From Nitrospinaceae bacterium (GTDB taxonomy: Bacteria; Nitrospinota; Nitrospinia; Nitrospinales; Nitrospinaceae), in the NCBI GenBank assembly GCA_965237905.1, contig OZ250172.1:2592001-2656000 (forward strand): a stretch of DNA of 64,000 nt, given 5' to 3'. Position 1 is the stretch's first letter; every line of letters begins with the position of its first letter. Of the stretch, positions 9,006-61,300 are shown one piece after another. The notes below the pieces were generated by a model that searched no databases, had not been told where the DNA came from, and was given only the letters and a program-made list of their open reading frames with translations. Both the position numbers and the translations under genes were made by a program.

Positions 9006-9053
9006 TCAAGCCTTCTCCTTCCAGCGCCTCACATCTTTTAGGTATTTTTCCCT
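9006..9053 (-). pseudogene. Displaced duplicate of the MBL hydrolase 3' end (REKYLKDVRRWKEKA*)
   Basis: 39/48 identical to 9850-9897 (REKYLKDVRRWKGKA*). Confidence 0.85.
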
Positions 9054-9097
9054 GAAAAATATTCCTCATAAATTATCCGCGCAAATTGTCATGAGAA

Positions 9098-9691
9098 TTA
9101 ATGGCCAGAATTCTTGGATAGGTTCTTATCCACAATTAGATATTTACCCTCATCGTCCAACCGCAAATGATCCTTGTTTTTCAACCACCAGTCAAACCAC
9201 TCTTTCGAGGTCATCTCTAATCCAGTTACCTCTTTTAAACTAGGAAAATAGTATTCTAATCTTTTGTAAATTTCTTCTTTGGGTCCCGGAGGCTTGTCTT
9301 TAAGACGTCGATCAACTCCCCTAAGCGCTCGGATCACCATCTCTTTATAGACATCCTCTTTGGCCTTCAAATCTGCTATCTCACTGAGAGGAAAAGCGAA
9401 ATGAGGCATCCCCCGGATACCATGCACAGCAATTTGGAACTGCCCACACAAATACTCTTCAGATTGATAAACATTTCTCAATCTTCCCTCAACCTTGCGT
9501 ATCCAATACCACCGGGGCTCTACCGGTATATAAAACTGCCGGGGGTCCGGGCAAGGCTTTTTTATTTCTTTTCCCGTTTCAGCGGGATATTTTTCGTCTT
9601 GCTTGGTGCCTTCCTGAGAGCAGGCGGAAAAAAACAAAGCCGTGGAAAAAATAAAAAGACTGGGGATTAATGGAAAAAATAGACGTGGCAT
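9098..9691 (-). CDS. Hypothetical lipoprotein
   Basis: Signal peptide with FSAC lipobox; AT-rich codons. Confidence 0.7.
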   Translation of the reverse strand: MPRLFFPLIPSLFIFSTALFFSACSQEGTKQDEKYPAETGKEIKKPCPDPRQFYIPVEPRWYWIRKVEGRLRNVYQSEEYLCGQFQIAVHGIRGMPHFAFPLSEIADLKAKEDVYKEMVIRALRGVDRRLKDKPPGPKEEIYKRLEYYFPSLKEVTGLEMTSKEWFDWWLKNKDHLRLDDEGKYLIVDKNLSKNSGH

Positions 9692-9849
9692 AACGTTAAT
9701 CCAAAAGTTTAATGGGTAGGTGCTTAAAATCAGGATAGGGGTTTAATACCGGATTTGCAATATGAGGAGAGTCAAAACGGACAAAAATTCAAAATGGATC
9801 GGGCTTTAGGAGGTGGTCTGAAATTTGGCGGAGCCAATGGGTAATCCGG

Positions 9850-11256
9850 TCAGGCTTTACCTTTCCAGCGCCGCACGTCTTTCAGGTATTTTTCCCGGTC
9901 CATGGTCAGGTCTGCGGGGAAGGTATCCATGAGGGGTTCCAGAGCCTGGTTGATTTTCTCGGACGGAAAATATTCCAGACTGCCGTTGGTGATGCGATAG
10001 ATATTATTAAAGGTCCGGTAGTTGCCGCACAGGGCAACATAATCCCAAGAGGTGGTCTTCTGAATCAACGCATAAAGTTCTGAAGAGGCAACCCCCTCGT
10101 ACAGGTTGATCTTGCCCAGGTCTCCCTTTTGAATGCGAAGCTCGGGCTGGCCGAAATCAATACTCCATACCTCTGACTCTCCCTGCCCGAACACTTCCAA
10201 CTGATACACCATCCGCCAGTGCTTCCAGCCTTGTAGAATCTCGCTTTTTAAGATTCGGTCCATGAACTGGTTTTCAATAAAATCCCGGATCACGTTCATT
10301 TCCTGTTCATGCTGTGCCGGATCGGTGGTTTGTGTTCTAATCGGTGACACCTCCAGAACCGGTTTGAAAGCCACCCGGTAGCTGTCATCCTCAACGGTTC
10401 GGACGAAATCCGAGCCTTGGGATTCCACACGGACTCCATTGGGTGTGATATGGGCGACATCCCCGGACAAAAAGGTACTGCTTTGGATCTCGGGACAGAA
10501 CTCTGAAAGATCGCTCAGAAACTGCTCCTGGGTAGTGGGAAAGGTGTAATGATTCATAAAGGCGAACTCGTCCCGGTAACGGAAGGCGGCCGAGCCGGGG
10601 ACCACAAACCGGGGCGACAGCGCCCGCATGGCGTTCAGGAACGAGCAATACTCGTCGAACGGCAGTATCACCGGTTTGTGATAAGTGAGGTTTCCTTCCA
10701 GCAAAGGCAGAAACCGCGAATGTGCCAAATCCACCCCGCCGTATAACTGGCTGATATGGTCGATAATTTCAGGGCTCACAATGGTGTCCACCTGGTTCCA
10801 GGCGGTCACCTGGCCATCGTGAACCAGCAGGCCGTGCTCCGGAAAATAATCCTGAGACGTGCTCGCCTGATTGAGCGAAGGGGTCGGGGTGATGATGACA
10901 TCCTTCACGGGGATCGGTTCGAAGTCGGCCAGGATCTCGATATTTTCAAATTCCAGTTCCTTGAGAACTTCCAGAACAATATCGTCGTTGGGAGCCATGA
11001 TGCGGACATCGGGTTTGAGGATGCGGTTGTTCCGCTTGAGATAGGCCAGGGTGCGCACATCAAAATGGTCCTGATGCCGATGCGACAGAAATAGAACGTC
11101 GACAGGAGGGATGGCGTCCTTGTTCAATTCGGTGCGGGGGCACAGCACATTGATCTCCTCCCACAAGTAATCGAACCAGACGGGGTCCGTCAGAATCGTC
11201 GTCTCCTTGGACTGTATGAGCAGGCTGGCATGCCCGACCAGGGTGGTTTTAAGCAT
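9850..11256 (-). CDS. MBL-fold metallo-hydrolase (UlaG-like, long)
   Basis: VGHASLLI, ILTDPVW, LSHRHQDH (HxHxDH). Confidence 0.85.
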   Translation of the reverse strand: MLKTTLVGHASLLIQSKETTILTDPVWFDYLWEEINVLCPRTELNKDAIPPVDVLFLSHRHQDHFDVRTLAYLKRNNRILKPDVRIMAPNDDIVLEVLKELEFENIEILADFEPIPVKDVIITPTPSLNQASTSQDYFPEHGLLVHDGQVTAWNQVDTIVSPEIIDHISQLYGGVDLAHSRFLPLLEGNLTYHKPVILPFDEYCSFLNAMRALSPRFVVPGSAAFRYRDEFAFMNHYTFPTTQEQFLSDLSEFCPEIQSSTFLSGDVAHITPNGVRVESQGSDFVRTVEDDSYRVAFKPVLEVSPIRTQTTDPAQHEQEMNVIRDFIENQFMDRILKSEILQGWKHWRMVYQLEVFGQGESEVWSIDFGQPELRIQKGDLGKINLYEGVASSELYALIQKTTSWDYVALCGNYRTFNNIYRITNGSLEYFPSEKINQALEPLMDTFPADLTMDREKYLKDVRRWKGKA

Positions 11257-11340
11257 TCATTTTTGACAGTTAGGGTTCAGAAGCAGGTAAGACTACCCGA
11301 AAGGAGGGCTTAATTCAAGTCTTGGGTCGTTTTATGAAAG

Positions 11341-11412
11341 TAGCCCCAAGGGGAATCGAACCCCTGTTTCCGCCGTGAGAGGGCGGCGTCCTAACCGCTA
11401 GACGATGGGGCC
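11341..11412 (-). tRNA. tRNA-Glu (anticodon CTC); CCA not encoded
   Basis: GGCCCCA..TGGGGCT acceptor stem, CCGCC-CTCTCAC-GGCGG anticodon arm, GGTTCGATTCC T arm. Confidence 0.95.
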
Positions 11413-11455
11413 ATAATCAATTTCAATGAAACGAAAGAAGGGCGTGCTCAATTTC

Positions 11456-11941
11456 TTAAAACCGGTCGCGATTCATAATGGGTGGTCCGCCGCCACCTTT
11501 CCGGTTCTTCTTCTTTTCTGTCCGGATGCGGTGCTCTTCCTCCAGGTCGCGCTTGTTGAGTCCGTGGACCTGGTAGACCATCAATAGGTAAGCGGGGACG
11601 GACATGGCGACCCAGGTAGCCATAAATTTACCAGCCGTGGAAGGCGGAGAGGAGTCGGCTCCCTGCTCTGCCCCCGTGAACATCATCGACATCGCCCAGA
11701 GCACCAGGCCAAAAACGATCCCCAACAAAGAGGAAACGGCCACCTTGTGCACCACCTCGTTGGGATACAAACCGCTGACGATGGGAAACTCGGTCACATA
11801 AGCCCCCAGCAGACCCAAAGTCGCCATGATGAACATGGCCCCCATCAGAAAATCGTTGGTGATGGCCACCGTTCCCACCAGGAGATACGTCGGTGCCCAT
11901 ATGCCGAGAATAAACGGATTGCGATAGATATTAACTGCCAT
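11456..11941 (-). CDS. Hypothetical membrane protein (about 4 TM)
   Basis: Hydrophobic segments and a charged C-terminal tail; lies between two tRNAs. Confidence 0.75.
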   Translation of the reverse strand: MAVNIYRNPFILGIWAPTYLLVGTVAITNDFLMGAMFIMATLGLLGAYVTEFPIVSGLYPNEVVHKVAVSSLLGIVFGLVLWAMSMMFTGAEQGADSSPPSTAGKFMATWVAMSVPAYLLMVYQVHGLNKRDLEEEHRIRTEKKKNRKGGGGPPIMNRDRF

Positions 11942-11968
11942 AATTTAACGTTCCCCAAAGAAAAAAAA

Positions 11969-12042
11969 TGGCTCGGGTACAGGGAGTCGAACCCCAACCT
12001 TCAGATCCAGAAACTGACGTCCTACCATTAGACAATACCCGA
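11969..12042 (-). tRNA. tRNA-Gln (anticodon CTG); CCA encoded
   Basis: TCGGGTA..TACCCGA-G-CCA acceptor stem, TT-CTG-GA loop, GGTTCGACTCC T arm. Confidence 0.93.
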
Positions 12043-12273
12043 ACGCTTTTCCCAATTCTATGGGGATTGCCGCCCGGATTCAACCTAAATTGACATTGGC
12101 CGGCGAGCATATTACAACACAGAGCCGGAGCCCTGTAAAGAACCGGGACCGGGCAAGGCCCGGAGCCAATGCGCTGAGGCGTGATTGCGATTTTTTTGTG
12201 CAGCTTTCGCCATCCGGGGTTCTTGTCATCTGTGGCGGTTCGCCGCCAGAAACCTGATTCGAATGGACCTGAT

Positions 12274-12849
12274 ATGCGCGTGATCGGCGGTACCGCGAAA
12301 AGCACTCCACTGGCAAGTCTCAAGGGGGCGAAGGTGAGGCCGACCCTCGACCGGGTGCGGGAATCGCTGTTCAATCAGATCGCCGGGGAGATCGCGGGCG
12401 CCTGTTTCCTGGACCTGTTCGCCGGGTCCGGGGCCATCGGCATCGAGGCCCTCAGCCGGGGCGCGGAGGAGGTGGTGTTTGTGGAACTCAATTCCAAAGC
12501 CCAGGCCATTATCTACCAGAATCTGGCCAAATGCCGGTTTCTGGATTCCGAAAGCGAGGAGAAAAAGTCGAAAAACTGGATTCTGCTCAAATCCAATGCT
12601 CTGCATGCCCTCAAGCTACTGGCGGAGCGTCACCATCAATTCGATCTGGTGTACGTCGATCCGCCCTACGCCGACGGCCTGTATGAGGAAACCCTGACGG
12701 CGCTGGCGCATTCCCACCTGCTTGCGGAATCGGCGCAGGTGATCGCCGAACACCATCACAAAACGGCTTTGCAGGAAAATTATGATAAACTGAGCCTTAC
12801 CAAAACCCGGCAAATCGGCGATACTTGTTTGTCGTTTTACGAACTTTAA
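12274..12849 (+). CDS. rsmD: 16S rRNA (guanine(966)-N2)-methyltransferase
   Basis: MRVIGG, RPTLDRVRESLFN, LDLFAGSGAIGIEALSRGA, DPPY. Confidence 0.93.
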   Translation: MRVIGGTAKSTPLASLKGAKVRPTLDRVRESLFNQIAGEIAGACFLDLFAGSGAIGIEALSRGAEEVVFVELNSKAQAIIYQNLAKCRFLDSESEEKKSKNWILLKSNALHALKLLAERHHQFDLVYVDPPYADGLYEETLTALAHSHLLAESAQVIAEHHHKTALQENYDKLSLTKTRQIGDTCLSFYEL

Positions 12850-12853
12850 TGAT

Positions 12854-12991
12854 GTCATCCTGAACTGGTTGAAGGGTGACAGGAAACCAAGATATATTAA
12901 CCACAGATGAACACCGATAGAACCTATATATCTATCCGGTTTTATCCTGTCAAAATTTTTTATGTCGTGCTTCGACAGGCTCGGCATGACA
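12854..12991. repeat. Cluster of REP-like repeats between rsmD and mnmA
   Basis: GTCATCCTGAAC..GAAGGGTGACA, TTAACCACAGATGAACAC and CTTCGACAGGCTCGGCATGACA. Confidence 0.7.
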
Positions 12992-13000
12992 ATTAATATA

Positions 13001-14089
13001 ATGAACGTATCCATTCCAAAAGACAAAAAGATCGTCATTGCTATGAGCGGCGGGGTGGACAGCTCCGTCGCTGCGGCCCTGCTCAAGGAGCAGGGTTACG
13101 ACCTTATCGGCGTCTCGCTCCAGCTGTGGAATTACAGCTGGGATACGGACCAGCGTTTCGGCACCTGCTGTTCGCTCGACGATCTGGCCGATGCCCGCCG
13201 CGTGGCGGAGAAGGTCGGTATTCCGCATTACATCGTGAATCTCGAAAAGGAATTCCGCAAGGAAGTCGTCGACTATTTCGTCTCGGAATACATGCAGGCG
13301 CGTACGCCCATCCCCTGCACCGCCTGCAACAAGAAGCTCAAGTTCGACGAGCTGATGAACAAGGCGCAGATTTACGGCTACGATTACGTTGCCACTGGAC
13401 ACTACGCTTCCATCGTTCAGGATGAAGCAGGACGCTACACTGTGAAGCGCGGTCAGGACCGGAACAAGGATCAGAGTTACTTCCTGTTCAACCTGTCGCA
13501 GGAGCAGTTGGCGCAGAGTTTGTTCCCGCTGGGAGAAATGGATAAGCCGGAGGTACGGCGGCTGGCGGAATCGATCGGCCTCAACGTCGCCGGCAAGTCG
13601 GAGTCGCACGAAATCTGTTTTATCCCCGACAACGATTATGCCGGGTTCATCGCCGGGCAGGTGGATAAGGAAGCTTTTCAGCCGGGCAACATCGTCACCG
13701 CCGGTGGGGAGGTGCTGGGCACGCACAAGGGCTACCCCGCCTTCACCATCGGTCAGCGTAAAGGACTCAACCTCGGCGGATTATCGGAGCCGTATTATGT
13801 GACGGCGATCAGTTCGGTGAAAAACGAAATCACCGCCGGGCCCAAAAACGATCTGTTCCGGGAAGAGTTCACCGTTAGTGATGTGAGCTGGTACCTCGAC
13901 CACTGTGAACCGTTCGAAGCGGAAGTGCAGATTCGGTATCGTCACCGGGCGGTGGAATCGGTAGTGACGCCGCTTCCTAATGGACGCGCCCGCATTCAGA
14001 TGAGTATGCCTCAGCCCGCCGTAGCTCCCGGCCAGTCGGCGGTGTTCTACAAGGACGACTGTATCATAGGCGGGGGCTGGATCGAATGA
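13001..14089 (+). CDS. mnmA: tRNA 2-thiouridine(34) synthase
   Basis: AMSGGVDSSVAA, TPIPCTACN, ATGHY, KDQSYFL, TIGQRKGL, PGQSAVFY. Confidence 0.95.
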   Translation: MNVSIPKDKKIVIAMSGGVDSSVAAALLKEQGYDLIGVSLQLWNYSWDTDQRFGTCCSLDDLADARRVAEKVGIPHYIVNLEKEFRKEVVDYFVSEYMQARTPIPCTACNKKLKFDELMNKAQIYGYDYVATGHYASIVQDEAGRYTVKRGQDRNKDQSYFLFNLSQEQLAQSLFPLGEMDKPEVRRLAESIGLNVAGKSESHEICFIPDNDYAGFIAGQVDKEAFQPGNIVTAGGEVLGTHKGYPAFTIGQRKGLNLGGLSEPYYVTAISSVKNEITAGPKNDLFREEFTVSDVSWYLDHCEPFEAEVQIRYRHRAVESVVTPLPNGRARIQMSMPQPAVAPGQSAVFYKDDCIIGGGWIE

Positions 14090-14862: not shown

Positions 14863-14870
14863 AGCTTTAT

Positions 14871-28014: not shown

Positions 28015-28335
28015 ATGATGAATCTAGGAATAGATGGGTTTGATTGGGATTCTGGAAATTCCAAAAAAATTAAGAAGCATGGTGTGCTCCCGGAGGATAT
28101 CGAGGGTTTTTTTCAGCAAGACAGTATTTATGTAGCTCCGGATATCAAGCATTCTCAAAAGGAAGAGCGGTATTTGGCTGTGGGGTCTTCGCCCAAAGGA
28201 CAACCCATGGTGGTGGTTTTTACCTTCCGGGAAAACGAGGGGAAACGGTTGATTCGTCCCATCAGTGCCCGGTTCATGCATGACAAGGAAGCGAAACGAT
28301 ATGAAGAAGAAAATTCCAAAATTCAAAAGCGATAA
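28015..28335 (+). CDS. brnT: BrnT family toxin
   Basis: FDWDSGN..KHGV, HSQKEERY, VVFTFR, IRPISAR. Confidence 0.88.
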   Translation: MMNLGIDGFDWDSGNSKKIKKHGVLPEDIEGFFQQDSIYVAPDIKHSQKEERYLAVGSSPKGQPMVVVFTFRENEGKRLIRPISARFMHDKEAKRYEEENSKIQKR

Positions 28336-28552
28336 GGAAGCCGAGAAGTTTCTGGACCAGGATTTGACAGACTATCTTGATCTCAAAAACTTTCAAAGGG
28401 TGAGTTTTGAGTTTCAGCCCAAAACCAAAAAAATCAGTATCCGGGTTTCCGAGGAATTGCTGGAGGCCGTAAAGAAAAAGGCCAAGCGTCAAAAGATTTC
28501 CTACCAAAAATACATACGCAAAGCCGTGGAAGAATCCTTGGTGCCGAAATAG
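28301..28552 (+). CDS. BrnA/CopG-type antitoxin
   Basis: KIPKFKSDKEAEKF, KTKKISIRVSEELLEAVK..SYQKYIR; overlaps the toxin gene. Confidence 0.85.
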   Translation: MKKKIPKFKSDKEAEKFLDQDLTDYLDLKNFQRVSFEFQPKTKKISIRVSEELLEAVKKKAKRQKISYQKYIRKAVEESLVPK

Positions 28553-28651
28553 GGGGAATTAGCACCCAAAGGCTGTTTGATGATAGTCTTAACGGGTACC
28601 GCTGTTAGCGAATAGTATTATTAAATATAAAAAATACCAATTTTCTATTAA

Positions 28652-29329
28652 ATGGGAAAATCTCAATTGGAAGCTATTAATCCAGACTTTGAATGGTACG
28701 AATCTTTAAGTCAAAAGAAAGGTCTTCATCCACGGTGCCCTTTTGCTTCGGTAAACAAATGTCCAAGATATTTTGAAAGCCTTTCTCTTTTACAAGAAAC
28801 TGGAGCGACAGAATTAGATCCCGAAGAAGAGGAAAGGCTCCTCAATCATTGGAAAACTTCTGACCTTTGGCCCCGGTTGGGGGAACAAGCATCGAGTGTT
28901 TGGGGTGGGGAAGGAAATAAGCATATCTCGAATTTCTGTCCAGAAGTTTCCTTTTTAAGATTCAATCTATTTGCCTCAGACTTATACAGGTATTCGGATG
29001 AAATTGATTTGGGTGTAGCCCATTCTCGCCTCGGCGAAATTGGCGCTCCGATAACGGATTGGAGATGGGCCTGGGGACATGTTCGGCCCATGCATTATTC
29101 AGAATGCCCTCTTTATTCTCCCTTAGCCCACCAATCATCATTAGATGGAAGCTCGGAAGAACATAACGAAAATTCGGATATTATTCAGGGGAAACCGACT
29201 TATTTAGGGATGCAATTAAATTATCGTGTACTTTTGGGGCAAATTAAAAAATGGAAATGGGTAAGGAAGGTAAAAGAAAAAATTGAAAGTTGTTTGAATA
29301 AATTAAAAGAGAAACATCAGCAAAATTAA
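28652..29329 (+). CDS. Hypothetical protein (AT-rich, Cys-containing)
   Basis: 225 aa ORF with RCPFA, KCPRY, FCPE and ECPLY. Confidence 0.7.
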   Translation: MGKSQLEAINPDFEWYESLSQKKGLHPRCPFASVNKCPRYFESLSLLQETGATELDPEEEERLLNHWKTSDLWPRLGEQASSVWGGEGNKHISNFCPEVSFLRFNLFASDLYRYSDEIDLGVAHSRLGEIGAPITDWRWAWGHVRPMHYSECPLYSPLAHQSSLDGSSEEHNENSDIIQGKPTYLGMQLNYRVLLGQIKKWKWVRKVKEKIESCLNKLKEKHQQN

Positions 29330-41320: not shown

Positions 41321-42961
41321 TCAGCCCTCAACCCGCTCGATTCGGGGCCGGGAAATGTAGCCGGAGGCGGCTACGGTGTGGGCCACGGCGTAATACACAG
41401 GGGAGGGCGCGGGGGTGAGCTTCGGCTCGGGACCCTGCCATTCCAGCGTGTGGCGGAACGGCACCACCATCGTCTTGCGGTCGCCGTCCCAGGTTTTGGA
41501 GCGGGAGGAGCCGTTCGATGCCAATCGCGCAGTCATGAATCCCGGCAGGCGAAAACTGCGCTGGTGGTACAGGTAATCGAGTTGCAGCAGGTCCCAGGCC
41601 AGGGGGTCGGCGTCGAGGTTAAAGGTCTCGGCGAAGATGCGGTACTGGTGGTCGAGCGACAACGCGTTCAATACCCGGTTTTCTTTTTCGAGTGCGGTCA
41701 TCAGTTTCTTGAAAACTTCTACGGGCGCCTGACTTTGGAGCAGACGGTCGAGGGAAAACTGAAACCGTTTGGTGTTGTAAAACAGGTCAAACGTCTCGTT
41801 GAACTGTTTCAGGAACCGGACTTCCTCCGCCGACAGGTTTTTGTGCGACAGAAATTCGTACGGTGGGAACGACAGGTAGCGGTACTCGTGAGATTCGATT
41901 TTGTCGCGAATCGGCGCGCCAGGCAGGAATTTCAGGAAGCCGAGTTGCAGTTCGTGCGGTTTGAGTTTCAGAACCTCGGTGAACGATTCCATCAGTTCGT
42001 CCAGGGTTTCTCCCGGTAAACCAAAAATGAGATCGCAATGGAGATGCACGCGATCCTGCTGGATCAGCGCCTGTATTGTTTTAAACAATTTTGCGTTGCT
42101 CTGTTTGCGGTGGACGGTGGTCTGTACTTCTTCCGTCGTAGTCTGAATGCCGATCTCGAACTGGAACATGCCCTGCGGCACGGTTGCGAGGAAGCGCATC
42201 ATGTCGTCATTGAGCAAGTCGCCGACCACTTCGAAATGAAACTCCGTGCCTTCGAACTGCGTCAGCCATTGCATGAGGCTCATCATGCGTTTTGGTTGAA
42301 GATTAAACGTCCGATCGACGAACTTGATCTTGCCCGTGCCGTTCTGGATGAGACGCTGGATCTGCTGGCGGATGTCGGCGTCGTCGAAGTACCTTACCTT
42401 CTTGTCGAGCGCCGACAGGCAGAACGAGCACAGGTAGGGGCATCCGCGCGAGGCTTCGATATACGCGTAGCGATTTTTAAGTGTGGGGTAATCCTCTTCG
42501 ATGTACGGCGGATGCAGGTCCGGCAGGTCATTGCCGTAAGTGTTCCAGTGGTCCAGCGTTTCCCGAGGCGGCGATTCCCCCTTGGCGGCGAAGTTGAGGT
42601 ACTCCACCCACTTGCTTTCACCCTCGCCTGCGATCAGGGTGTAGCCGTCCGGTAATTCCGGTTCGAAAGACACCTCCGGTCCGCCCAAAACAATTTTCAA
42701 ACCAGGATTTTGTTTCTGCAGGTATTCTAATAATTCGAAGCTTTGCTTCCGGTTCCAGATGTAGACACTGAGGCCCAAAATATCAGGCTGTTGTTTCAGG
42801 ATGTCCGCGGCGATTTTCCAGACCGGCTGGTTGATGATGAATTCTTGGACCCAGACGTTCTCGAATCCCGCCCGCCGCGCCGCATTGCGCAGGTAGCGCA
42901 GGCTCAGCGATGAATGGATAAACTTCGCGTTCAATGTGACAATGCCGATGGATGGGTTCAT
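41321..42961 (-). CDS. B12-binding domain radical SAM protein
   Basis: LNAKFIHSSLSLRYL, GGPEVS, RGCPYLCSFC, DRTFN; start placed at MNPS, 7 nt after an extended -10 TGGTATGCT. Confidence 0.88.
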   Translation of the reverse strand: MNPSIGIVTLNAKFIHSSLSLRYLRNAARRAGFENVWVQEFIINQPVWKIAADILKQQPDILGLSVYIWNRKQSFELLEYLQKQNPGLKIVLGGPEVSFEPELPDGYTLIAGEGESKWVEYLNFAAKGESPPRETLDHWNTYGNDLPDLHPPYIEEDYPTLKNRYAYIEASRGCPYLCSFCLSALDKKVRYFDDADIRQQIQRLIQNGTGKIKFVDRTFNLQPKRMMSLMQWLTQFEGTEFHFEVVGDLLNDDMMRFLATVPQGMFQFEIGIQTTTEEVQTTVHRKQSNAKLFKTIQALIQQDRVHLHCDLIFGLPGETLDELMESFTEVLKLKPHELQLGFLKFLPGAPIRDKIESHEYRYLSFPPYEFLSHKNLSAEEVRFLKQFNETFDLFYNTKRFQFSLDRLLQSQAPVEVFKKLMTALEKENRVLNALSLDHQYRIFAETFNLDADPLAWDLLQLDYLYHQRSFRLPGFMTARLASNGSSRSKTWDGDRKTMVVPFRHTLEWQGPEPKLTPAPSPVYYAVAHTVAASGYISRPRIERVEG

Positions 42962-43036
42962 GCCGCCTAGCATACCATTTTGAGGTATATTGCTTTACAA
43001 TTAAATATACTCGAGGTCAATTGAGAGGATAGCGAA

Positions 43037-43891
43037 ATGAAGTGGATCAGGTGCCTGGTTTTTGTGAGTGTTGTGTTGTTTTCAAGCATTGCGGGTGCAG
43101 GGAATTGTCAGGAGGAAAAGATGAAAAATCTCATGCAGGAGCTGGATAAGTCAAAAGTAGAATCAGCGCTCACCCTTTCAAAAGAGATAAAAGCCTACTC
43201 AAAGGGGAAGGAATTTGAATGTGTTGAGCCCTTGATCGTCGATTTCATATCTTTTTATAACCAATCGCTTAATGAATTCTCAGAGGCCAATGGTATTTCG
43301 GATTTGCCCTATCCCATGCCTGATGAGAAGAGAAGTGAACTTTCTTCCAGGATTGAAAAAGTCGGGTGGGAGCTCAGGGAATCAGAAGAAATGTATTACA
43401 TTGCTGAGCAGGGAGACTGGATATCAAAGGAGTTCGAGCCAATTCTCAATCAATCATGGAAAGATTATTTCGCCTTAGTCGCGGTGGAACTCAAAGAGGC
43501 GTTTTTGTCGGAAACCGACATCGTGCTTGTTAGCTGGAAAAAGCTTTGTGACCAGATTATCAAGTGGGACGAGTTTATGGCCAAATATCCAGAGTTTCCT
43601 TTGATCGGGTCGATTCAATACCACCATGCAGTTTATGTTGAGGCGCTTCTTACAGGTCAGGAGCCGTCAGGAGGGAGTGATCGGAACAATCACAAGTTGC
43701 AGCCTGAAGTTAAAAAAGAATACGAGCGTTTTATTGAAGTGAATACCCAATCAAAATATCACCCTATAGTTAAGGAGTACTATGATTTTCTCTCAAAGAA
43801 TGATTTTATGGTTAATGAGGGAACGATCTATTTTCTTCTTCAGGACCATGTTAAAAGTCTATTCGATGTCAAGCCGCCTCTCGACTACTAA
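43037..43891 (+). CDS. Hypothetical exported protein
   Basis: Signal peptide, GAGG RBS, AT-richer codons. Confidence 0.75.
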   Translation: MKWIRCLVFVSVVLFSSIAGAGNCQEEKMKNLMQELDKSKVESALTLSKEIKAYSKGKEFECVEPLIVDFISFYNQSLNEFSEANGISDLPYPMPDEKRSELSSRIEKVGWELRESEEMYYIAEQGDWISKEFEPILNQSWKDYFALVAVELKEAFLSETDIVLVSWKKLCDQIIKWDEFMAKYPEFPLIGSIQYHHAVYVEALLTGQEPSGGSDRNNHKLQPEVKKEYERFIEVNTQSKYHPIVKEYYDFLSKNDFMVNEGTIYFLLQDHVKSLFDVKPPLDY

Positions 43892-43903
43892 AAATGTATT
43901 GAA

Positions 43904-43976
43904 ATGAATCAATAAACTTTGCGTTTAGTGTGACAATACCGATCGATGGATTCATGCCGCCTGGCATACCATTTTG
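43904..43976 (-). pseudogene. Displaced duplicate of the radical SAM gene 5' end and -10 region
   Basis: 64/73 identical to 42910-42982; MNPSIGIVTLNAKFIDS versus MNPSIGIVTLNAKFIHS. Confidence 0.88.
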
Positions 43977-44023
43977 CGGAGAAGGAGGGAAAATATTGGA
44001 CAGGATAACAGGAGAAATTCGGA

Positions 44024-44058
44024 TTAACCACAGATGGACACAGATGAACACGGATAAA
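44024..44058. repeat. TTAACCACAGATG-type repeat (left arm)
   Basis: Inverted counterpart at 44695-44728; another copy at 12897-12919. Confidence 0.8.
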
Positions 44059-44082
44059 CAAAGATCCTTCGTTACACCGTAG

Positions 44083-44622
44083 TCAAGTGCATTTCTGATC
44101 AGGAAGTACTTTTAAGACTTTTCGGATATTTGCGGAGGTGACTTTAGAAGAATTATTCCTGTCCATTTGCCTGGCCACTCCCGCCATTTTTCCTACCTCT
44201 ACCCAGCTTTTGTACCGATAATTCCCTCCGTGAACATCTAAAATGAAAAGGGAATTATCCTTTTCGGAAAATGATAGAATAGCCATGTTAACGACCACTC
44301 CGCTTTTATTTTTTTCGATTAAAAACCCTTGCCGGGTTTCTTCAGTATTTCGATTTCGCAATTTTCTTATGGGCTCGGAAGGAAAAATCAAAGAATACCA
44401 ATGCTTTTCGCTATTGTAATCCGGGTCGAGGATGTAATCCGCGTCGATGATATAGCAGGAAGTAACGGGTACTTGGGCTCCCCGCTTTTCAATATCACTC
44501 AACAAATTTTCATAAGCCTCGTCGAAAGCTCCGGAAGATGCTCCTAGGGAAAGAATAAGAATCAGGGTCATCCATGTTGTTTTGATAAGCCGGTTGCTGT
44601 GGAAAGTTTTGGGTTTTGGCAT
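44083..44622 (-). CDS. Hypothetical exported protein
   Basis: 179 aa ORF with a hydrophobic N-terminal segment. Confidence 0.65.
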   Translation of the reverse strand: MPKPKTFHSNRLIKTTWMTLILILSLGASSGAFDEAYENLLSDIEKRGAQVPVTSCYIIDADYILDPDYNSEKHWYSLIFPSEPIRKLRNRNTEETRQGFLIEKNKSGVVVNMAILSFSEKDNSLFILDVHGGNYRYKSWVEVGKMAGVARQMDRNNSSKVTSANIRKVLKVLPDQKCT

Positions 44623-44694
44623 AAGTGATTTCTCAGTGCTTCTGAATCATACTGCTAGTATAAAGGATAAAGGGGCGCATCTGGAAAGTTAAAT

Positions 44695-44728
44695 TCATCG
44701 GTGTTTATCTGTGTTCATCTGTGGTTAA
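44695..44728. repeat. ATCTGTGTTCATCTGTGGTTAA repeat (right arm)
   Basis: Reverse complement of 44024-44058 with few mismatches. Confidence 0.8.
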
Positions 44729-45674: not shown

Positions 45675-46266
45675 ATGGAAACTATAAATAAATTAACATT
45701 AAATTATGCGGATCTGGGTTTATTTGCACCAGTCATTCTGTTTGCCCTACTTGCTATTTTACATGTAAAGGTTTTTTTGCACTTTTCCATGTCGTTGCCG
45801 TATTTTAGGTCGTTCCTGAAGTTGAAAGAGTTGAAGCATAATTTCTTTCCGCTGAAAGAAAAGGTTTTATCGAGTGAGAGACATTCCTTAGCTAACCTCA
45901 TGGTTAAGTCTGATGGAGAGCAGACTTTATGGGCGAGGACGTCTATGAAGGGCTCTTGGAACGCTGGTTTTGTTTTGAAAATGGCCTTATCGAAAGCCAA
46001 GGACGAGGTGATCAAAACAGAAGTGATGTTTTCCCCTTTTAGTAACATTTCTTGCTTGTGCGGTTTTCGCATTTCTTTCTTTCAATTTTGCGTTTCCTTT
46101 TTTCAATACGGTCACGGGTCAACCGGATGATGGCGTTATAAAGTTTGCTCCTTATTTAGTGTTCCCAACTCTTTTGCTTGGCTACTGGTCGATGCTAAGA
46201 CAGTATTTCAAGCAGGCAGACCAGTTTTTGAGTGAAATGACTGCGTCAACTGGTCGGAGTCAATAA
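45675..46266 (+). pseudogene. Frameshifted membrane protein gene
   Basis: ORF 45675-46130 continues in another frame from the TTTTCCCCTTTT tract (about 46029-46040) to TAA at 46266, adding two TM helices. Confidence 0.55.
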
Positions 46267-50555: not shown

Positions 50556-50558
50556 GAA

Positions 50559-51101: not shown

Positions 51102-51267
51102 AAAATTATTTTACCTTTTTCAGTGCCGGTTTTCATGTTGGAGATTCTGTCCTCCCTTACATTTCAGTTCATGCTTCTGGCAAGCTGAATGGAGGCTTTT
51201 TACTATACTATAAGCGAAGAGAATCTTATAATAATTTAGGGGGATAACAGGTTTGAGGAGATTGATC

Positions 51268-51756
51268 ATGAAAAAGCGACTCAGTTTTCTAGTTTTTTGT
51301 GTGCTACTTAGTTTTCCGATGGTTTGTTTCGCGGAGGAATTGGGTGGAGGATATTCTCTTGTTCCTTCAGAGAATTGGATCATCAAGAGCCCTCCTGCGT
51401 CCAAATATAAAGTTGTCCTAACCGATCCTGCAGATAATTTCGCACCTAATATTAACGTTGTGGAGGAAGAGTTTAGTGGCTCAATGGAAGATTATATCCG
51501 GTTATCGATGGAGACTTTAGTGAAAATGATGATGGCCAAAAAGATTAGTGAATCGTCTTTTTCCTCCAAGAATGCTGATGGGGTTAGGTTAGTCACTCAT
51601 ACGCAGATGAATGCTTTAAAGTTAAGACAGGTGTTTTATTTTTTTGAAAACTCCCAGGGGCAAAAAGTGGTGGTCACGGCCTCTACCAGCAGGGACTCGG
51701 GAGATAAATTTGATGCCGCATTTGATAAAATGCTCCATTCCTTTAGAGTCAAATAG
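51268..51756 (+). CDS. Exported DcrB/PsbP-like protein
   Basis: Signal peptide; FAPNINVVEE; C-terminal FDKMLHSFRV. Confidence 0.6.
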   Translation: MKKRLSFLVFCVLLSFPMVCFAEELGGGYSLVPSENWIIKSPPASKYKVVLTDPADNFAPNINVVEEEFSGSMEDYIRLSMETLVKMMMAKKISESSFSSKNADGVRLVTHTQMNALKLRQVFYFFENSQGQKVVVTASTSRDSGDKFDAAFDKMLHSFRVK

Positions 51757-53599: not shown

Positions 53600-53603
53600 T
53601 AAC

Positions 53604-53765: not shown

Positions 53766-53850
53766 GGAGTCACGGGAAATTCACGCAGAGGGGAGTAGAG
53801 TGTAGGGTCTGTTAAGGAAAGAGATGAATTTCCCGGTTCAAGCCCGAGCA

Positions 53851-55686: not shown

Positions 55687-56147
55687 TCCCCTTTATTTAT
55701 ACTGCAACTGGATGAGGCTTTTTTATTGGCCTCAAGACAGATAATTTCATCAAAGGCATCAGAAATAGGACCCTTGAATTCCTTGATAATTGCTGAGCTC
55801 ATAGTGCTCCGCTCTTCCCAGCGCATAAAAAATTTTCCGATAAGGTCACCCTCCGGGTTTATTAGAATTCTCCACTGCTGTGCCGATATGTTATTGCTCG
55901 GCACACCCTTCACGTATTCATGCGCTTTCTGCAACTCAACTTCAAGAGCTTCAATCCTTTCTTTATGAGTCGAGTATTGCTCTGTCGCCTTGTCCATTAC
56001 GGCCAATGTTTCCGTCTTTAAAGATGTCGCGTACTTGTAGGATTCCGGGCTGTAGGGTCCAATGAGTGGGGCGCAGGCTGTAATCAATGACAACGCCATT
56101 AAGACAAAAAGGGTTGAAGCTTTAGCCGTTAAGTACCGCATAGTCAT
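55683..56147 (-). CDS. Hypothetical lipoprotein
   Basis: LITAC lipobox; AAGGAG RBS; ISAQQWRIL, AFDEIICLE. Confidence 0.75.
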   Translation of the reverse strand: MTMRYLTAKASTLFVLMALSLITACAPLIGPYSPESYKYATSLKTETLAVMDKATEQYSTHKERIEALEVELQKAHEYVKGVPSNNISAQQWRILINPEGDLIGKFFMRWEERSTMSSAIIKEFKGPISDAFDEIICLEANKKASSSCSINKGE

Positions 56148-56455
56148 CTCTCCTTGGGGGGTTCATATTTCCCCCACTCAATTTTTCAAAACAGGATGTA
56201 GTACGCAAAAAAAATCGGTACGCCAATATAATGAAAAGAGGGGCAAAAAGAAATAAAAAAAACCGGTTGGTAAACAGGTAACCAGTCGAGAGGTGAATTT
56301 CCTTTATATACCGCTTGTTCGTGGTTTCGGTTGTACGATTATTTATCAAGCTTACCCTTTTGTAGGCACCCCAATGGTGGTGAGCAGGGAATCGCGCGAG
56401 CGATTTGATTTTGAAAAGCATTGAAAAGACTAACCTTTTTTTTGAGTCCAAACAT

Positions 56456-56471
56456 TGGTGCGTTTTTTGCA
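56456..56471 (+). promoter_or_regulatory. sigma54-type promoter upstream of the diheme cytochrome c gene
   Basis: TGGTGCG-TTTT-TTGCA. Confidence 0.5.
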
Positions 56472-56594
56472 GCAAACCAGTACAGGAGAATTCTTTAGTG
56501 TGCAAATGGATAATTTTGGGCGTCGCGTACATCACATCGAGAGAATCCGTGAAAAGTTAAATTCTCTTGGCGCTTATCGAATAGGGGGGGATCC

Positions 56595-57965
56595 ATGGAG
56601 TATTCAAAAAAGGCTAATAGATTATCCGGTTTAATATCAATTTTTCTGTTGTTGCTTTCAGCCTGCCAGCCGCCACCTCCGGTACCGAAACCCGAAGAAG
56701 TCCTGATTGCCAAAGGTAAAGAGATTTTTTTCAACGAGACGTTCAACGGCAACGGCAGAACCTGCGGCACATGCCATCCTGAGTCCAATAACCTCACCAT
56801 TGATCCGGCGTTCATCGCCACGCTGCCCGATGATGATCCGCTCTTTGTCGCAGAGTTCATGCCCGCGTTGAAAAAGAATTTCGAAAATCCCAGACTGATG
56901 CGAGAGTTTGGGCTGATACTGGAAAACGTAGACGGGTTCGAGGATTTGGAGAATAAATTCGTGATGCGGGGTGTCCCCCACACTCTTGGCTTGCAAACCT
57001 CGGTGGATAGCCCTCAGGGGCCGCGAACCGGATGGTCCGGTGACGGCGCCCCCGAAGACGGTTCCCTGCGCTCGTTTGCGACGGGGGCGGTGACTCAACA
57101 CTTTACCAAGACCCTGAATCGTGTGCCCGGAGAGGATTTTCGACTTCCAACCGAGAAAGAACTGGATGCCCTGGAGGCGTTCCAGCTCTCATTGGGACGA
57201 CAACAGGATTTGGCTTTACCGCTTCCATTAAAAGGCACTGTACCCAAACGTGGGCAGGCAATTTTCCTGGATAACTCGTTGGGCAAGTGTAACCTTTGCC
57301 ATGCCAATGCCGGAGCCAACGCGAGTATTGGCGGTCAAGATCTTGGAAATATGAACTTCGATACAGGTGTGGAGAATCTCCCCGATCAGCCGGCGGATTT
57401 GACAGGGGAGCGGGTTCCGCCCGATGACGGATTCGGCAGGCCCGGTGATGGTACGTTCAACACCACCCCTTTAGTCGAAGCCGCCGATACCGGACCTTTT
57501 TTCCACAATAATGCGATTGAAACCATCGAGGGAACCGTGGCTTTTTACAACGGGGATGCCTTCAACAATTCAGCGGCAGGTATTTTCCTGGCGAGTATGG
57601 ATCCCAATCAAGTTGGCATCAAGCTGGACGGAACTCAAGTGGTGGCGGTGGCTGCGTTTCTGCGGGTGATCAATGCCCTTGAGAATATCAGGCAGAGCAT
57701 TGAACTTTTAAATTCAGGAAGTCGAAAAGGTTTTTTTGAAAAAAGCGAAGCGGGTGAAGTGCTGAAACTTGCTATTCAGGAGACCGATGACAGCATCGCG
57801 GTTCTCGCCGGAGCGGGTCTGAATCCTGCGGCCGTGGCACACTTGAAAAAAGCCAGGAGACTGACTCAAAAGGCAATCCACAGCTTTTTTTTCAGACAGA
57901 AAACCCTGCGTGAAGCCATTTTGGAACAGCAAAAGGCGAAACAGCAACTCGTTGAATCATCCTAG
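56595..57965 (+). CDS. Diheme cytochrome c lipoprotein (bCcP/MauG superfamily-like)
   Basis: LLSAC lipobox; NGRTCGTCH and KCNLCH; FNTTPL..ADTGPFFHNN. Confidence 0.8.
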   Translation: MEYSKKANRLSGLISIFLLLLSACQPPPPVPKPEEVLIAKGKEIFFNETFNGNGRTCGTCHPESNNLTIDPAFIATLPDDDPLFVAEFMPALKKNFENPRLMREFGLILENVDGFEDLENKFVMRGVPHTLGLQTSVDSPQGPRTGWSGDGAPEDGSLRSFATGAVTQHFTKTLNRVPGEDFRLPTEKELDALEAFQLSLGRQQDLALPLPLKGTVPKRGQAIFLDNSLGKCNLCHANAGANASIGGQDLGNMNFDTGVENLPDQPADLTGERVPPDDGFGRPGDGTFNTTPLVEAADTGPFFHNNAIETIEGTVAFYNGDAFNNSAAGIFLASMDPNQVGIKLDGTQVVAVAAFLRVINALENIRQSIELLNSGSRKGFFEKSEAGEVLKLAIQETDDSIAVLAGAGLNPAAVAHLKKARRLTQKAIHSFFFRQKTLREAILEQQKAKQQLVESS

Positions 57966-58002
57966 CCTTCCCGGTCGAGGGAGCGGTACTGGATGGCTTC
58001 GG
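57962..58002 (-). pseudogene. Displaced duplicate of the comM 3' end ([12 protein letters not shown])
   Basis: 57975-58002 is identical to 60432-60459 over 28 bp; 33/35 with extension. Confidence 0.88.
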
Positions 58003-58039
58003 AGATCGGGGTTGGTATAATTCTTGGGTTTTGTGTGGT

Positions 58040-60364
58040 TTAGTCGTCCTTTCCTATTTCAGCGGCCTCCAATAGTTCTTCAGCTAAAGCCTTTTCCTTA
58101 TCCGTTTCGTTTGCGTTTTCGGAAATACTCTTTAAGCGTTCCAACGCTTCATCGTAATCAATAAAATTTTTTAAATCTCTACGGTTCAAAGGGTAGTATG
58201 TTTTGTCTGAATGCATCCAGCTACGGCAGGCATTTAAGAATTTTAAGAATCTCTCGTCTGTGCTTTGCTGCTCCTTTACCCATTCTAGGACACCATCTTT
58301 ATCATTTGATTCGAGCCAGCTATACATCAGCTCAAGAACCTCCGGAGTATCAATAATTTTCTCGCGGTCTGAAGATTTAAATCTTTCCAGCATTAAATTA
58401 ACTGCCGTATCCAGTTCTTGCTTTGAAAATGCCCATTCATCCTCGGTTTTGGGATTGTTTCCGGTTCTACCTTGCGCAAATAATTGATCCCTAATGACTT
58501 CTGACATGAGCCAACCAATCGCTTCGCACGTTGAAAATATTTCATTGATAACCTCGTTGCGTTTGTCGCCGGGTAGTTTGGTAACTAATTTTTTAAATAA
58601 GTCTTTACCGGCACGCCATGACCATCTTACGCCCCATTGGCCTTTGCCCTCTTTCTGCCCCACCTCATCCATGTGATTCGCCAATGCCTTCAAAATTGAC
58701 GGAATGGCATCATTTGGTAGCTTTTCCTCGTCAAGGTTTTTGAGGCGGTCTATCAGCACATCAAATTTAGTGCCACCTTGTGGACGTGCCTGCTGTATGA
58801 GAGCCCTAGAAAGGTCTTCAAGGCTTTCGCCTTTTTTCGCTGAAGCTATAAAACTATACAGCTCTGTGTCTTCAAGGCCTCCCGCTGGCTGGGCAAAAGC
58901 AAAATAGTATCTGCTGTGATGGGGGCTGCCTAGCCGACAGTCCCTTTCTAATAATGAAATGTCGTCTCCACTTCCAAAATTAAAGAGACGATCCTTGTCT
59001 TCCACAGTTGCCCCTGGTTGAATTCCGGGAATGAAATCCGCAAATGACCATATTGATCGTGCGGAACTAACGCTGCTTTCCGGTAGGAGTTTTTTTAGTT
59101 CTTGCGCTAGTTTAGTTCTTTCGGTCTCATCGATAAAAGCGCCCTCAGAACCGGCAACAAATTCACGGAGGTATTGCTCAATCCATGAATATAAGGCTTC
59201 ATTTTTCAACCGAATCATTTGTAGCCAAACGAGGTCTGGGAAATCGGCTTTGTCACATATAGGCGGCCAATAAAGTTTAATCGCGTTTATAGCCCGTATT
59301 ACATCGCGGGGAGTCTCCAGAAGTCCGCCTTCCAAATCGCATACCTCATGTAATCTTTGTAAAACATCTCCTGATAACTGTTTTTCAGAAATGGCATTGT
59401 AAAATGAGAGACATTCTTCCAGAAGCCATCTTCGCAAGTCAAAAGCTTCTGGTTGTGGAACTTTAAAGCTGACTTGGATCATTTTTTTGAGAAAATCCTT
59501 GCCATTATCAATTGAAATGGCTTCTTGAAGACTTCGTGCCAGGATTTCCTGATCGAAGCAAAGGACATAGATAACATTGGGGAAATCAGCAACCGCCCTT
59601 ATGAGACGCATAACTTCGGCAGCTTCTCGTGGCTCAAGCCGATCCAAATCATCAACAATCACTACAATACGTCGGTTGAGTTTACGAAGGCCTTCTGTAA
59701 GCTCTTTCTTGACTTCCGGTAACGGTTTGCCTGAATCAAATGCATCTGCCGCATTTGCAACCTGTTCAAGTGTTGCACCCGCAAGTTGTCCCAGTGGGAT
59801 TCCAAGGGTTCCTGCAAGCCGAGCTATAGGAGCTAGCCCGCGTGATAGTTTCGAACCGTATCCGCGGAGTTGTTTGGAGAGTTTTACCGTCTCTTCTTTG
59901 AGTTTTTGTCCTTTCCCCTTTTCTGGGGCTTCGATTGCCTCCACGGCTGTAGCCAGGTCCGACATAAGTGCAGCCAGCATGCCATCCCTGTCACCCACTA
60001 ACCAAGGTTCAAACCGGACAATTTTTGGTGCTTGCTCTCGGTTATTTTCCAATTCCTCTGCTAGCAGATTAACTAAACTGGATTTGCCTGATCCCCATTT
60101 TCCCTCGATGGATATAACTAGTCCATGGTTTGCCACTTGCTTAATTAGGGATGTTGCCAGCTCTTTGGCGACAGACCGAAAACCCAAGCGATCTTCCTTA
60201 TACCCAGATGAAATTGAATGGTCAGGATCGAATTCTCCGGGGCCTAGTGGAATAGGAGTCTCAGAGTCACTTCCTCCCTCAGCCTCTTTCTGTGGCATGT
60301 CTTTTAAATCATCATCGTTTGCCATTCTCAGAATCTTTCGTCCAAAATTCAAAAGCCATTTCAT
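58040..60364 (-). CDS. KAP family P-loop NTPase
   Basis: DRLGF, IEGKWGSGKSS Walker A, VVIVDDLDRL Walker B, FLKKMIQVSFKVP, TPRDVIRAIN. Confidence 0.9.
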   Translation of the reverse strand: MKWLLNFGRKILRMANDDDLKDMPQKEAEGGSDSETPIPLGPGEFDPDHSISSGYKEDRLGFRSVAKELATSLIKQVANHGLVISIEGKWGSGKSSLVNLLAEELENNREQAPKIVRFEPWLVGDRDGMLAALMSDLATAVEAIEAPEKGKGQKLKEETVKLSKQLRGYGSKLSRGLAPIARLAGTLGIPLGQLAGATLEQVANAADAFDSGKPLPEVKKELTEGLRKLNRRIVVIVDDLDRLEPREAAEVMRLIRAVADFPNVIYVLCFDQEILARSLQEAISIDNGKDFLKKMIQVSFKVPQPEAFDLRRWLLEECLSFYNAISEKQLSGDVLQRLHEVCDLEGGLLETPRDVIRAINAIKLYWPPICDKADFPDLVWLQMIRLKNEALYSWIEQYLREFVAGSEGAFIDETERTKLAQELKKLLPESSVSSARSIWSFADFIPGIQPGATVEDKDRLFNFGSGDDISLLERDCRLGSPHHSRYYFAFAQPAGGLEDTELYSFIASAKKGESLEDLSRALIQQARPQGGTKFDVLIDRLKNLDEEKLPNDAIPSILKALANHMDEVGQKEGKGQWGVRWSWRAGKDLFKKLVTKLPGDKRNEVINEIFSTCEAIGWLMSEVIRDQLFAQGRTGNNPKTEDEWAFSKQELDTAVNLMLERFKSSDREKIIDTPEVLELMYSWLESNDKDGVLEWVKEQQSTDERFLKFLNACRSWMHSDKTYYPLNRRDLKNFIDYDEALERLKSISENANETDKEKALAEELLEAAEIGKDD

Positions 60365-60412
60365 AAAGAGTACTTCAGAGAAAAGGGTATCATTTTATAA
60401 GATTTTCCTCAT

Positions 60413-61300
60413 TCAAAAATGATTTTCCCTATCGAGGGAGCGGTACTGGATGGCTTCGGCGACGTGCTCGGCGGTGAGGGGTTCCACGCCGTCCAGGTCG
60501 GCGATGGTGCGCGAGACTTTGAGTATCCGGTCGTGCGCCCGTGCGCTCAGTCCCATCTTGTCGATCGCTAGCGCCATGATCTGCTTCGATGCGTCGTCCA
60601 ATTGACAATGTTGCTTGAGCTGTTTGGTAGTCATCCCGGCGTTGAAAAAGGTTTGAGAGTCCTTAAACCGGCCCAACTGCACCTGCCGCGCTTTTTCCAC
60701 CCTATCGCGGATGTTCGATGAAGGTTCGCCCCCCGCTTCCGATGACAGTTCCTTGTATTCCACCGACGGCACCTGGATGTGGATATCGATCCGGTCCAAC
60801 AGGGGGCCGGAAATCTTCGACACGTACTTTTTGATCATCGGCGGCGTGCAGGTGCATTCGCGTTTGGGATCGGTCCGGTATCCGCACGGGCAGGGATTCA
60901 TCGCCGCCACCAGCATGAAGTCGGTGGGATAGGTGATCGACCTGGAGGCGCGCGCGATCGACACCTTGCCGTCCTCGATCGGTTGCCGTAAAACTTCCAG
61001 CGCGTTGCGTTTGAATTCCGGCAGTTCGTCGAGGAACAACACGCCGTTGTGCGCCAGCGACACCTCGCCCGGCATCGGCACCGTGCCGCCGCCGATCAAT
61101 CCCGCGTCGGAGATGGTGTGGTGCGGCGAGCGAAACACGCGCGTGGGGATCAATCCTTTGCCGTTGTCGAGCAGTCCCAGCACGCTATGGATCTTCGTGG
61201 TTTGAATCGCCTCCTCCAGTGAGAGCGACGGCAGGATGGTCGGCAGGCGTTTCGCCAGCATCGACTTGCCGCTTCCCGGCGGCCCGATGAGGATAATATT
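60413..61300 (-). pseudogene. comM: 3' portion of comM/yifB (Mg chelatase-like AAA+ ATPase), 5' part displaced
   Basis: [67 protein letters not shown]; the N-terminal domain is replaced by AT-rich DNA. Confidence 0.9.

Follow-up and report, generated by a model that had tools for sequence, protein, structure and literature searches.

Displaced gene ends beside integrase-free cassettes in a Nitrospinaceae genome

Results

Three loci with a repeated host gene end

A 64,000-nucleotide stretch of a Nitrospinaceae bacterium (GenBank assembly GCA_965237905.1, contig OZ250172.1, positions 2,592,001 to 2,656,000; here called the window) contains three loci in which a host gene is followed by an AT-richer cargo gene and then by a second, diverged copy of the host gene's own terminus. 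We refer to the copy joined to the host gene as the attached copy, to the one beyond the cargo as the far copy, and to the whole arrangement as a displaced-end scar. Scars of this type are real and general in this genus, and judged from their substitutions the two copies are different alleles of the host gene. The genome holding the window (one 3.09-Mb contig) is designated G000, and G001, G002, etc. are comparison genomes. The features of the three loci are as follows.

9006..9052, minus strand: far copy at locus 1, the displaced original 3' end of host gene 1, running on into conserved backbone
9043..9061, no strand: perfect inverted repeat, 8 bp with a 3-nt loop, across the joint of cargo 1 and the far copy
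9098..9691, minus strand: cargo 1, a 197-aa orphan with a lipoprotein-like signal (FSAC; by eye)
9850..9896, minus strand: attached copy, the final 47 bp of host gene 1, stop codon included
9850..11256, minus strand: host gene 1, a metallo-beta-lactamase-fold (MBL) hydrolase of 468 aa (Pfam Lactamase_B_2/B_3)
41321..42973, minus strand: host gene 2, a B12-binding radical SAM protein (DUF4080) of 550 aa
42910..42985, minus strand: attached copy, the 5' end of host gene 2 (12 upstream bases plus the first 21 codons)
43037..43891, plus strand: cargo 2, a 284-aa protein with a signal-peptide-like N terminus (by eye) and no assigned function
43897..43914, no strand: perfect inverted repeat, 6 bp with a 6-nt loop, across the joint of cargo 2 and the far copy
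43904..43979, minus strand: far copy at locus 2, the displaced 5' end of host gene 2 (alignments 43906-44013 with G002 and 43906-43997 with G008)
56595..57965, plus strand: cytochrome c-like lipoprotein gene, convergent on the far comM copy (weak Cytochrom_C / CCP_MauG matches below cut-off)
57968..58005, minus strand: far copy at locus 3, the displaced comM 3' end, continuing to an in-frame TAG (97% to the G001 and G008 alleles)
58040..60364, minus strand: cargo 3, a PifA-type KAP NTPase of 774 aa, an anti-phage family (Pfam KAP_NTPase)
60413..61297, minus strand: host gene 3, comM, 3' part only (Mg-chelatase-like ATPase of the YifB family; Pfam Mg_chelatase, Mg_chelatase_C)
60425..60462, minus strand: attached copy of the comM 3' end

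The direct repeats measure 47 bp at 83% identity (9006-9052 / 9850-9896), 76 bp at 87% (42910-42985 / 43904-43979), and 38 bp at 92% (57968-58005 / 60425-60462) for loci 1 to 3, respectively. In the host reading frames the copies differ by 6:1, 6:2, and 2:1 synonymous to nonsynonymous codons, or 14:4 in total, and the cargo genes have GC contents of 0.42, 0.41, and 0.44 versus 0.53, 0.56, and 0.60 for their hosts. These measurements bear out an earlier note on this DNA, which had described all three repeats and the lower cargo GC, had counted 16 synonymous changes among about 19 coding differences (15 of 20 bases in our recount), and had called the cassettes free of recombinases and transposases, no such domain being found in the three cargo open reading frames (ORFs). 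Its repeat lengths, 35 to 73 bp, were slightly understated.

Orthologs of host gene 1 in G001, G002, and G008 are 92 to 93% identical and those of gene 2 are 87 to 90% identical; for comM, TIGR00368 matches the G008 ortholog. Cargo 1 gave no family match in Pfam, NCBIfam, or PADLOC, had no homolog but itself among 85 candidates, and had Atlas matches all below 0.9. Cargo 2 likewise gave no family match in profile searches and its Atlas look-alikes are unnamed clusters, with five homologs found at 52 to 79%. Cargo 3 matched PADLOC PifA with an E value of 2e-224 over positions 5-714/720; a 79% homolog occurs only in G010, and any match at all in 3 of 81 genomes. No relatives of cargo 2 or of PifA were confirmed by pattern scan.

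Empty sites in relatives indicate which copy is old. At the MBL locus, G001, G005, G007, and G008 lack cargo 1 at the orthologous site and pass from the gene directly into the sequence that lies behind the far copy in the window (8011-9005, conserved), and the last codons of the far copy agree with those of all four genomes. Compared with G008, the attached gene end has 8 differences and the far copy 2; the attached end is likely the incoming one. The MBL far copy was not found in other genomes of the genus, flanks being read for G001, G002, and G008. At the radical SAM locus, the far copy runs into upstream sequence common to G002 and G008, the site is empty in G001, G002, and G008, and the 5' end is single copy in 9 of 10 genus genomes. 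The comM site is empty in G006 and holds other cargo in G001, G008, G010, and G002, while contigs from runs X1, X3, and X4 link comM to the backbone; runs X1 to X4 contain relatives only, and the cargo has no coverage there. The cytochrome c-like lipoprotein gene follows the same comM remnant in contigs L195 and L201 (88 to 91%), the site being without it in G001 and G008, and is likely an earlier resident cassette. The relatives thus show empty sites and no full-length tandem paralogs, which argues against the remnants being pieces of decayed paralogs.

A genome-wide class of displaced ends

Using our own gene calls (2,717 genes in G000), we searched for each gene's 3' end in the sequence downstream of it, with control searches 40 to 46 kb away, in inverted orientation, and upstream. 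At a score of at least 18, matches were found downstream for 78 of 2,617 genes and at 40 to 46 kb for 0 of 2,587, compared with 5 of 2,617 in inverted orientation and 34 of 2,608 upstream. Matches scoring at least 17 numbered 82 downstream, 38 of them flagged as tandem paralogs, and 35 upstream, 25 of them so flagged; 6 of the remaining 10 upstream matches lie within a same-strand gene. Curation by eye reduced 37 candidates at 3' ends to 34, removing an internal tandem repeat, a weak match, and a duplicate of a convergent pair, and then to 30, removing two tandem paralogs, a dispersed repeat, and a repeat array. Six cases at 5' ends, retained from 10 rows, bring the curated set to about 36 places in G000. 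The genome-wide search that had been suggested for this idea therefore returned many more cases. Nine ectopic gene-end fragments elsewhere in G000 were, by eye, dispersed repeats or pieces of paralogs.

The host genes are unrelated to one another and, as named through their G008 orthologs, include ligA, rnr, glnS, gltX, mnmE, serB, asnB, cysH, arsC, a short-chain dehydrogenase/reductase gene, a ferredoxin gene, a Nif3-like gene, and comM. In the 3' cases the edge of the repeat lies 24 to 358 nt before the stop codon (median, 50), the copies are 75 to 96% identical, and the cargo spans 0.25 to 11 kb (median, about 1.2 kb), with a GC content below that of the genome in 25 of 30. A recombinase lies within 3 kb at only 1 of the 30 loci, and there is no replication-strand bias, 14 of 30 being on the leading strand versus 51% genome-wide. 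Where a G008 ortholog was available (26 of the 30 loci, 4 having none in the G008 sequence compared), the G008 gene is followed at 13 of 26 by what lies behind the far copy in G000 and at the other 13 by different sequence. Among lineage-specific segments on the G000 side, 27 of 135 carry a scar.

G002, G004, G010, and G048 have remnants too, G048 belonging to another family. In the 2.21 Mb of G008 that was compared, 1,892 genes yielded 6 cases, and mnmE has a second remnant in addition, 4 of 10 rows having been set aside (a dispersed repeat, a paralog, an N-gap, and one G001 row). The scar rate in G000, where comM is split, is about three times that of the compared G008 sequence, where comM is intact; this comparison involves two genomes with a possible assembly bias, and the lower G008 rate may come from its fragmented assembly.

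Two further observations concern single hosts. At G000 3038705-3042747, a cassette lies inside the overlap of the convergent serB gene and its partner, each repeat copy completing one gene, and the site is empty in G008. In G001, a 34-bp internal mnmE fragment (C20:38029-38062) lies 1.7 kb downstream of mnmE and stops short of the gene end.

Two alleles rather than duplicate and decay

The earlier note had proposed that both copies diverged while functional. We therefore assigned the changes at 26 loci to one copy or the other with the aid of G008 and compared them with a null matched for mutation type. Far copies carry 75 private changes, 42 of them synonymous where 23.8 were expected, a value reached in 0 of 200,000 simulations; among the 56 private to attached copies, 44 are synonymous. 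Given this synonymous excess, far copies evolved mostly under selection and the two copies are different alleles; the proposal passes this pooled test, about four loci showing decay alone. Nonsynonymous private changes number 33 on far copies versus 12 on attached copies, an excess that represents decay after displacement. The distance of either copy to G008 is about equal to the distance between the copies, and the predicted donors are therefore likely sister species.

Joints

The position of the joint varies between genes, and all three codon phases are used. At mnmE the edges fall at 193/195, 169, and 164 (193 and 195 share about 21 nt of flank and were counted as one event), and at glnS at 102 and 175. 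No shared motif was seen by eye across 34 rows. The empty sites of 52 clean G000 insertions form a continuum from a 132-nt overlap (-132) to a 143-nt gap (+143). Microhomology could be assessed where a homolog reached the joint, in 8 of the 34 rows, 3 of which were later dropped. At one joint two convergent genes, both truncated, are fused by their ends through a GC-rich microhomology of 10 nt, GGCATGCGCC, and both alleles of the slot between these genes are thereby retained. The G008 mnmE joint has no direct microhomology. Another joint truncates a cargo gene within its last codons; this cargo occupies the cysH site in G000 and the mnmE site in G008.

An initial test for hairpins centered within 10 nt of 30 joints was null (P = 0.3). 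In a tighter, post hoc analysis made after that result, perfect inverted repeats of at least 6 bp spanned 6 of 45 joints versus 2 to 3% of controls (P = 0.002), and 4 of 41 (P = 0.036) when G000 and G008 alone were considered, also post hoc. Among the 6 of 45 are the joints of the MBL and radical SAM loci, as well as one in G010 with a 12-bp arm. Since the donor tail and the displaced strand would be of the same polarity, an inverted match would pair them.

Uptake and mobility genes

G000 encodes a predicted set of DNA uptake genes, comEC, dprA, and pilin-like genes. Searches for mobility and repair families in this genome, which is 96% complete, gave no match for Y1, IS110, DDE_1, rve, RT, Ku, or RecT, other transposase families not being searched. 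Five tyrosine and two serine recombinase matches were found, two of the seven being XerC/D-like, and none was tied to a scar site in G000, the only genome scanned. The cassettes themselves contained no integrase. The scar repeats, diverged and 24 to 358 bp long, are unlike the short identical target duplications of insertion sequences (IS).

Other features of the window

The window ends within a second insertion in comM that lies outside the scar class.

61298..64000, continuing to G000 2671721, no strand: first part of an 18.4-kb island, separate from the scar, interrupting comM mid-gene

The comM alignment stops at 61302 and restarts at window-relative position 79721. The first reading of this DNA had overlooked this split. 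The island carries a large serine recombinase (PF07508 at G000 2655012). It also has a small tyrosine recombinase and, by eye, several ORFs that resemble defence genes, and its ends are long AT-rich inverted repeats. The accounts in PMC12378983 and PMC11551731 describe comM/yifB as an insertion target split by comparable islands.

None of seven gene ends beside four other indels in the window had a terminal copy (best score, 13). A terminal copy is likewise lacking at three AT-rich insertions without an integrase, relative to G008, at 28015-29329, 45675-46130, and 51253-51756. At 44014-44720, a 179-aa ORF with no family match is flanked by a dispersed repeat of the ACCACAGAT type in inverted copies and is missing in G001 and G008. 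Positions 1-3700 and the sequence upstream hold at least four diverged PilX-like genes in tandem, each stop codon being followed by a 76-bp, 96% identical repeat; this is possibly a variable pilus-tip locus. A tRNA-like gene at 11345-11412 is an empty site here; relatives carry about 57 kb (G008) or 12 kb with a rearrangement (G001) at this position. G001 and G002 carry different cargo in the slot after xerC. Behind the MBL gene, two small hydrophobic paralogous ORFs (8272-8511 and 8623-8856, about 63% identical) are kept in five genomes.

Discussion

Probable one-sided capture at gene ends

The anatomy of the loci, the empty sites, the two alleles, the later decay, and the variable joints are direct observations. 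With a likelihood somewhat above even, the cassettes arose by one-sided, homology-anchored capture of sister-species DNA, in a manner resembling homology-facilitated illegitimate recombination (HFIR). A linear donor fragment consisting of the donor gene's end plus the cargo would enter the cell, probably via natural transformation, and RecA would anchor it in the conserved gene. The nonhomologous tail would then be joined to the displaced recipient strand 24 to 170 nt inside the gene terminus, sometimes presumably at a short direct microhomology and sometimes by a fold-back. The structure actually observed is an intact, diverged gene end with the cargo next to it and the old end still on the backbone, where it has since decayed. 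Joints falling beyond the gene end would leave no scar and would make up the other four fifths of the lineage-specific segments. The short diverged duplicates likely persist because they would be poor substrates for deletion.

HFIR, as described in PMC2884548 and PMC6382021, consists of one homologous anchor and one illegitimate joint. The loci here share with it a presumed one-sided anchor, the illegitimate joint, the lack of any element enzyme, and, in one clear case, GC-rich microhomology. They differ in that HFIR was shown in the laboratory with engineered donors, whereas here there are dozens of natural loci, with the joint lying inside the anchor gene and duplicating its end, and with some joints having inverted instead of direct matches. 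The HFIR reading offered by the earlier note thus fits most loci. Its other suggestion, a trans-acting site-specific system, is not supported genome-wide, the joints being variable and without a motif, and is plausible only at the comM 3' end.

Several observations weigh against this account. Experimental HFIR mostly deletes recipient DNA. Direct microhomology is clear at only one joint (two rows, 10 nt); two others show it imperfectly and one lacks it. GC at the joints is barely raised (0.60 versus 0.56; P = 0.065). About four loci show decay only, with far-copy synonymous to nonsynonymous counts of 0:5 (G000 861660), 1:4 (ligA), 1:3, and 0:2. Sliding identity did not delimit a donor tract inside the host gene, relatives being about 87% identical, and relatives are equally far from both copies (224 versus 271 differences, four rows being later dropped); a weak hint of such a tract comes from G002, which matches perfectly over 56 nt next to the MBL repeat, one of 8 runs that long in 31.7 kb. 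The comM gene, whose product aids heterologous integration, is now split in G000. Lastly, the comM edges cluster, at 239 in G000, 239 in G010:C100, 240 in L195/L201, and 241 in G010:C147, each with a different flank. Two of these four are framed by an inverted repeat, one with a 7-nt spacer resembling a tyrosine recombinase core. G002 has its comM edge at 115, and the one in G048 is 9 nt further in, so 4 of 6 edges are within 2 nt. In G010:C147, the comM end from position 241 together with the same PifA gene (81% DNA identity) is found at a non-comM locus, between two genes that lie about 95 kb from comM in the G000 order and are both scarred in G000.

The comM cluster and the hairpin joints leave room for something more specific. 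One version, which we consider improbable on present evidence, is an end-capture pathway in which the tail is joined by fold-back pairing or templated synthesis at 6- to 12-bp hairpins, the comM 3' end is preferred, and units of gene end plus cargo are remobilized to other loci without an element enzyme. If true, defence and surface genes would be served by a cassette system that is enzyme-free and addressed by gene ends, in a genome that is almost IS-free.

Circles, att sites, and other possible origins

A circular intermediate, as proposed for rhs tips in PMC2935791 and not considered in the first reading of this DNA, would yield exactly the same end structure as one-sided capture. Here a circle of gene end plus cargo, formed by end joining or by pop-out between the two copies, would enter another cell and integrate by a single crossover in the short homeologous end. 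The comM end and PifA gene at the non-comM locus of G010 are placed as a released unit might be, and one cargo gene is found at both cysH and mnmE in different genomes. However, the model requires crossovers within 24 to 70 bp at 75 to 96% identity, with no RecT match, and its first joint still demands an illegitimate step. A reintegrated circle would bring the same flank and edge with it, whereas the four comM joints have four flanks, and the G008 copy of the cysH cargo comes without the cysH end. A check for circular or excised forms had been proposed; the X22 contigs contained no circle-joined or empty form, although contigs drop rare variants. We regard this origin as unlikely.

Somewhat less probable overall, but more plausible at comM and mnmE, is that the cassettes are att-site elements, either integrase-less remnants or trans-mobilized satellites whose attP carries a replacement gene end. 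The account in PMC4383910 treats displaced fragments as a standard mark of integrase islands. The comM edges at 239-241 with their four flanks, and the inverted repeats framing two of them, fit this origin. Moreover, mnmE is, like comM/yifB, a known integration target. Such elements would nevertheless have to use about 30 unrelated targets with no common motif by eye in a genome with only 7 recombinase matches. The edges are spread at mnmE and glnS, comM itself is also used outside the cluster, and the serine-recombinase island in comM uses a different, mid-gene site. Viral contigs contained no comM-end or mnmE-end match or pattern.

An origin by target-site or tandem duplication of a single allele, the far copy then decaying neutrally, is very unlikely. 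It fits the four decay-only loci taken singly, and far copies do carry more nonsynonymous changes. Pooled far-copy changes, however, are 56% synonymous versus 32% expected, and across all pairs the 148:118 ratio of synonymous to nonsynonymous differences is above the 43% synonymous that would be expected if one copy were live and the other dead (P = 1e-5). This origin is refuted as a general rule, and about four loci may fit it.

An assembly chimera of co-occurring strains, which could place two alleles 15% apart in one genome, is hardly credible: the two loci checked in X22, which may be the source of the DNA and hence is not independent, are each spanned by one contig with 0 differences at depths of 187 and 287, remnants recur in G002, G004, G008, G010, G048, L195, and L201, and far copies show decay, so the contigs speak against the artifact that the earlier note had allowed for.

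Relation to known systems

One of the closest parallels is displacement at rhs, contact-dependent inhibition, and type VI secretion system (T6SS) loci, where, as in PMC2935791, PMC5361080, and PMC11751169, an incoming end takes the place of the old one and pushes it downstream, and arrays form, as with the two mnmE remnants in G008; the latter two papers invoke HFIR for T6SS loci. There, the payload is the variable tip of one toxin gene family. The scars described here have a conserved end and a separate gene as payload, lie at housekeeping genes, and involve 5' ends as well. The scar works like displacement at rhs loci and is not a member of that family, its hosts not being polymorphic toxins.

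Integrase islands with displaced target fragments are familiar from the Islander work, from e14 and phage 21 at icd, SXT at prfC, and SGI1 at trmE, and from cis-mobilizable elements (CIMEs). The resemblance extends to a restored gene with a correctly oriented displaced fragment, silent differences, 3' and 5' forms, and the comM and mnmE targets. The scars differ in having cargo without an integrase and of only about 1.2 kb (median), no fixed crossover at mnmE or glnS, and about 30 targets, and by the integrase test they are not integrase islands.

Variable single-gene slots between core genes are also known, the minimal mobile elements of Neisseria being comparable. Hotspots of horizontal gene transfer free of mobile genetic elements, as described in PMC5635113, are renewed through double recombination at the core genes on either side. 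They resemble the loci here in their variable single-gene slots between core genes and in the lack of mobility genes, but double recombination replaces scarlessly, whereas the scar records an additive step. Our literature search, in which subscription journals were thinly covered, found no description of such a scar at housekeeping genes genome-wide. These loci extend a known displacement principle from toxin loci to housekeeping genes, with a scorable scar.

For the many integrase-free hotspots of gene gain, double recombination explains turnover and not the first addition of a gene. The additive step recorded by the displaced-end scar can create or extend variable slots, and the scar marks about one in five lineage-specific segments. 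A simple scan suffices to score it in any complete genome, and it gives both the anchor gene and the joint to the exact base. It also explains short pseudogene fragments that annotation would otherwise record as att sites or decayed paralogs. How often one-sided capture happens in nature, how it relates to competence and comM, and the cross-species replacement of essential-gene ends become directly testable in this way. No new enzyme is shown by these data; rather, integrase-free gene addition becomes countable.

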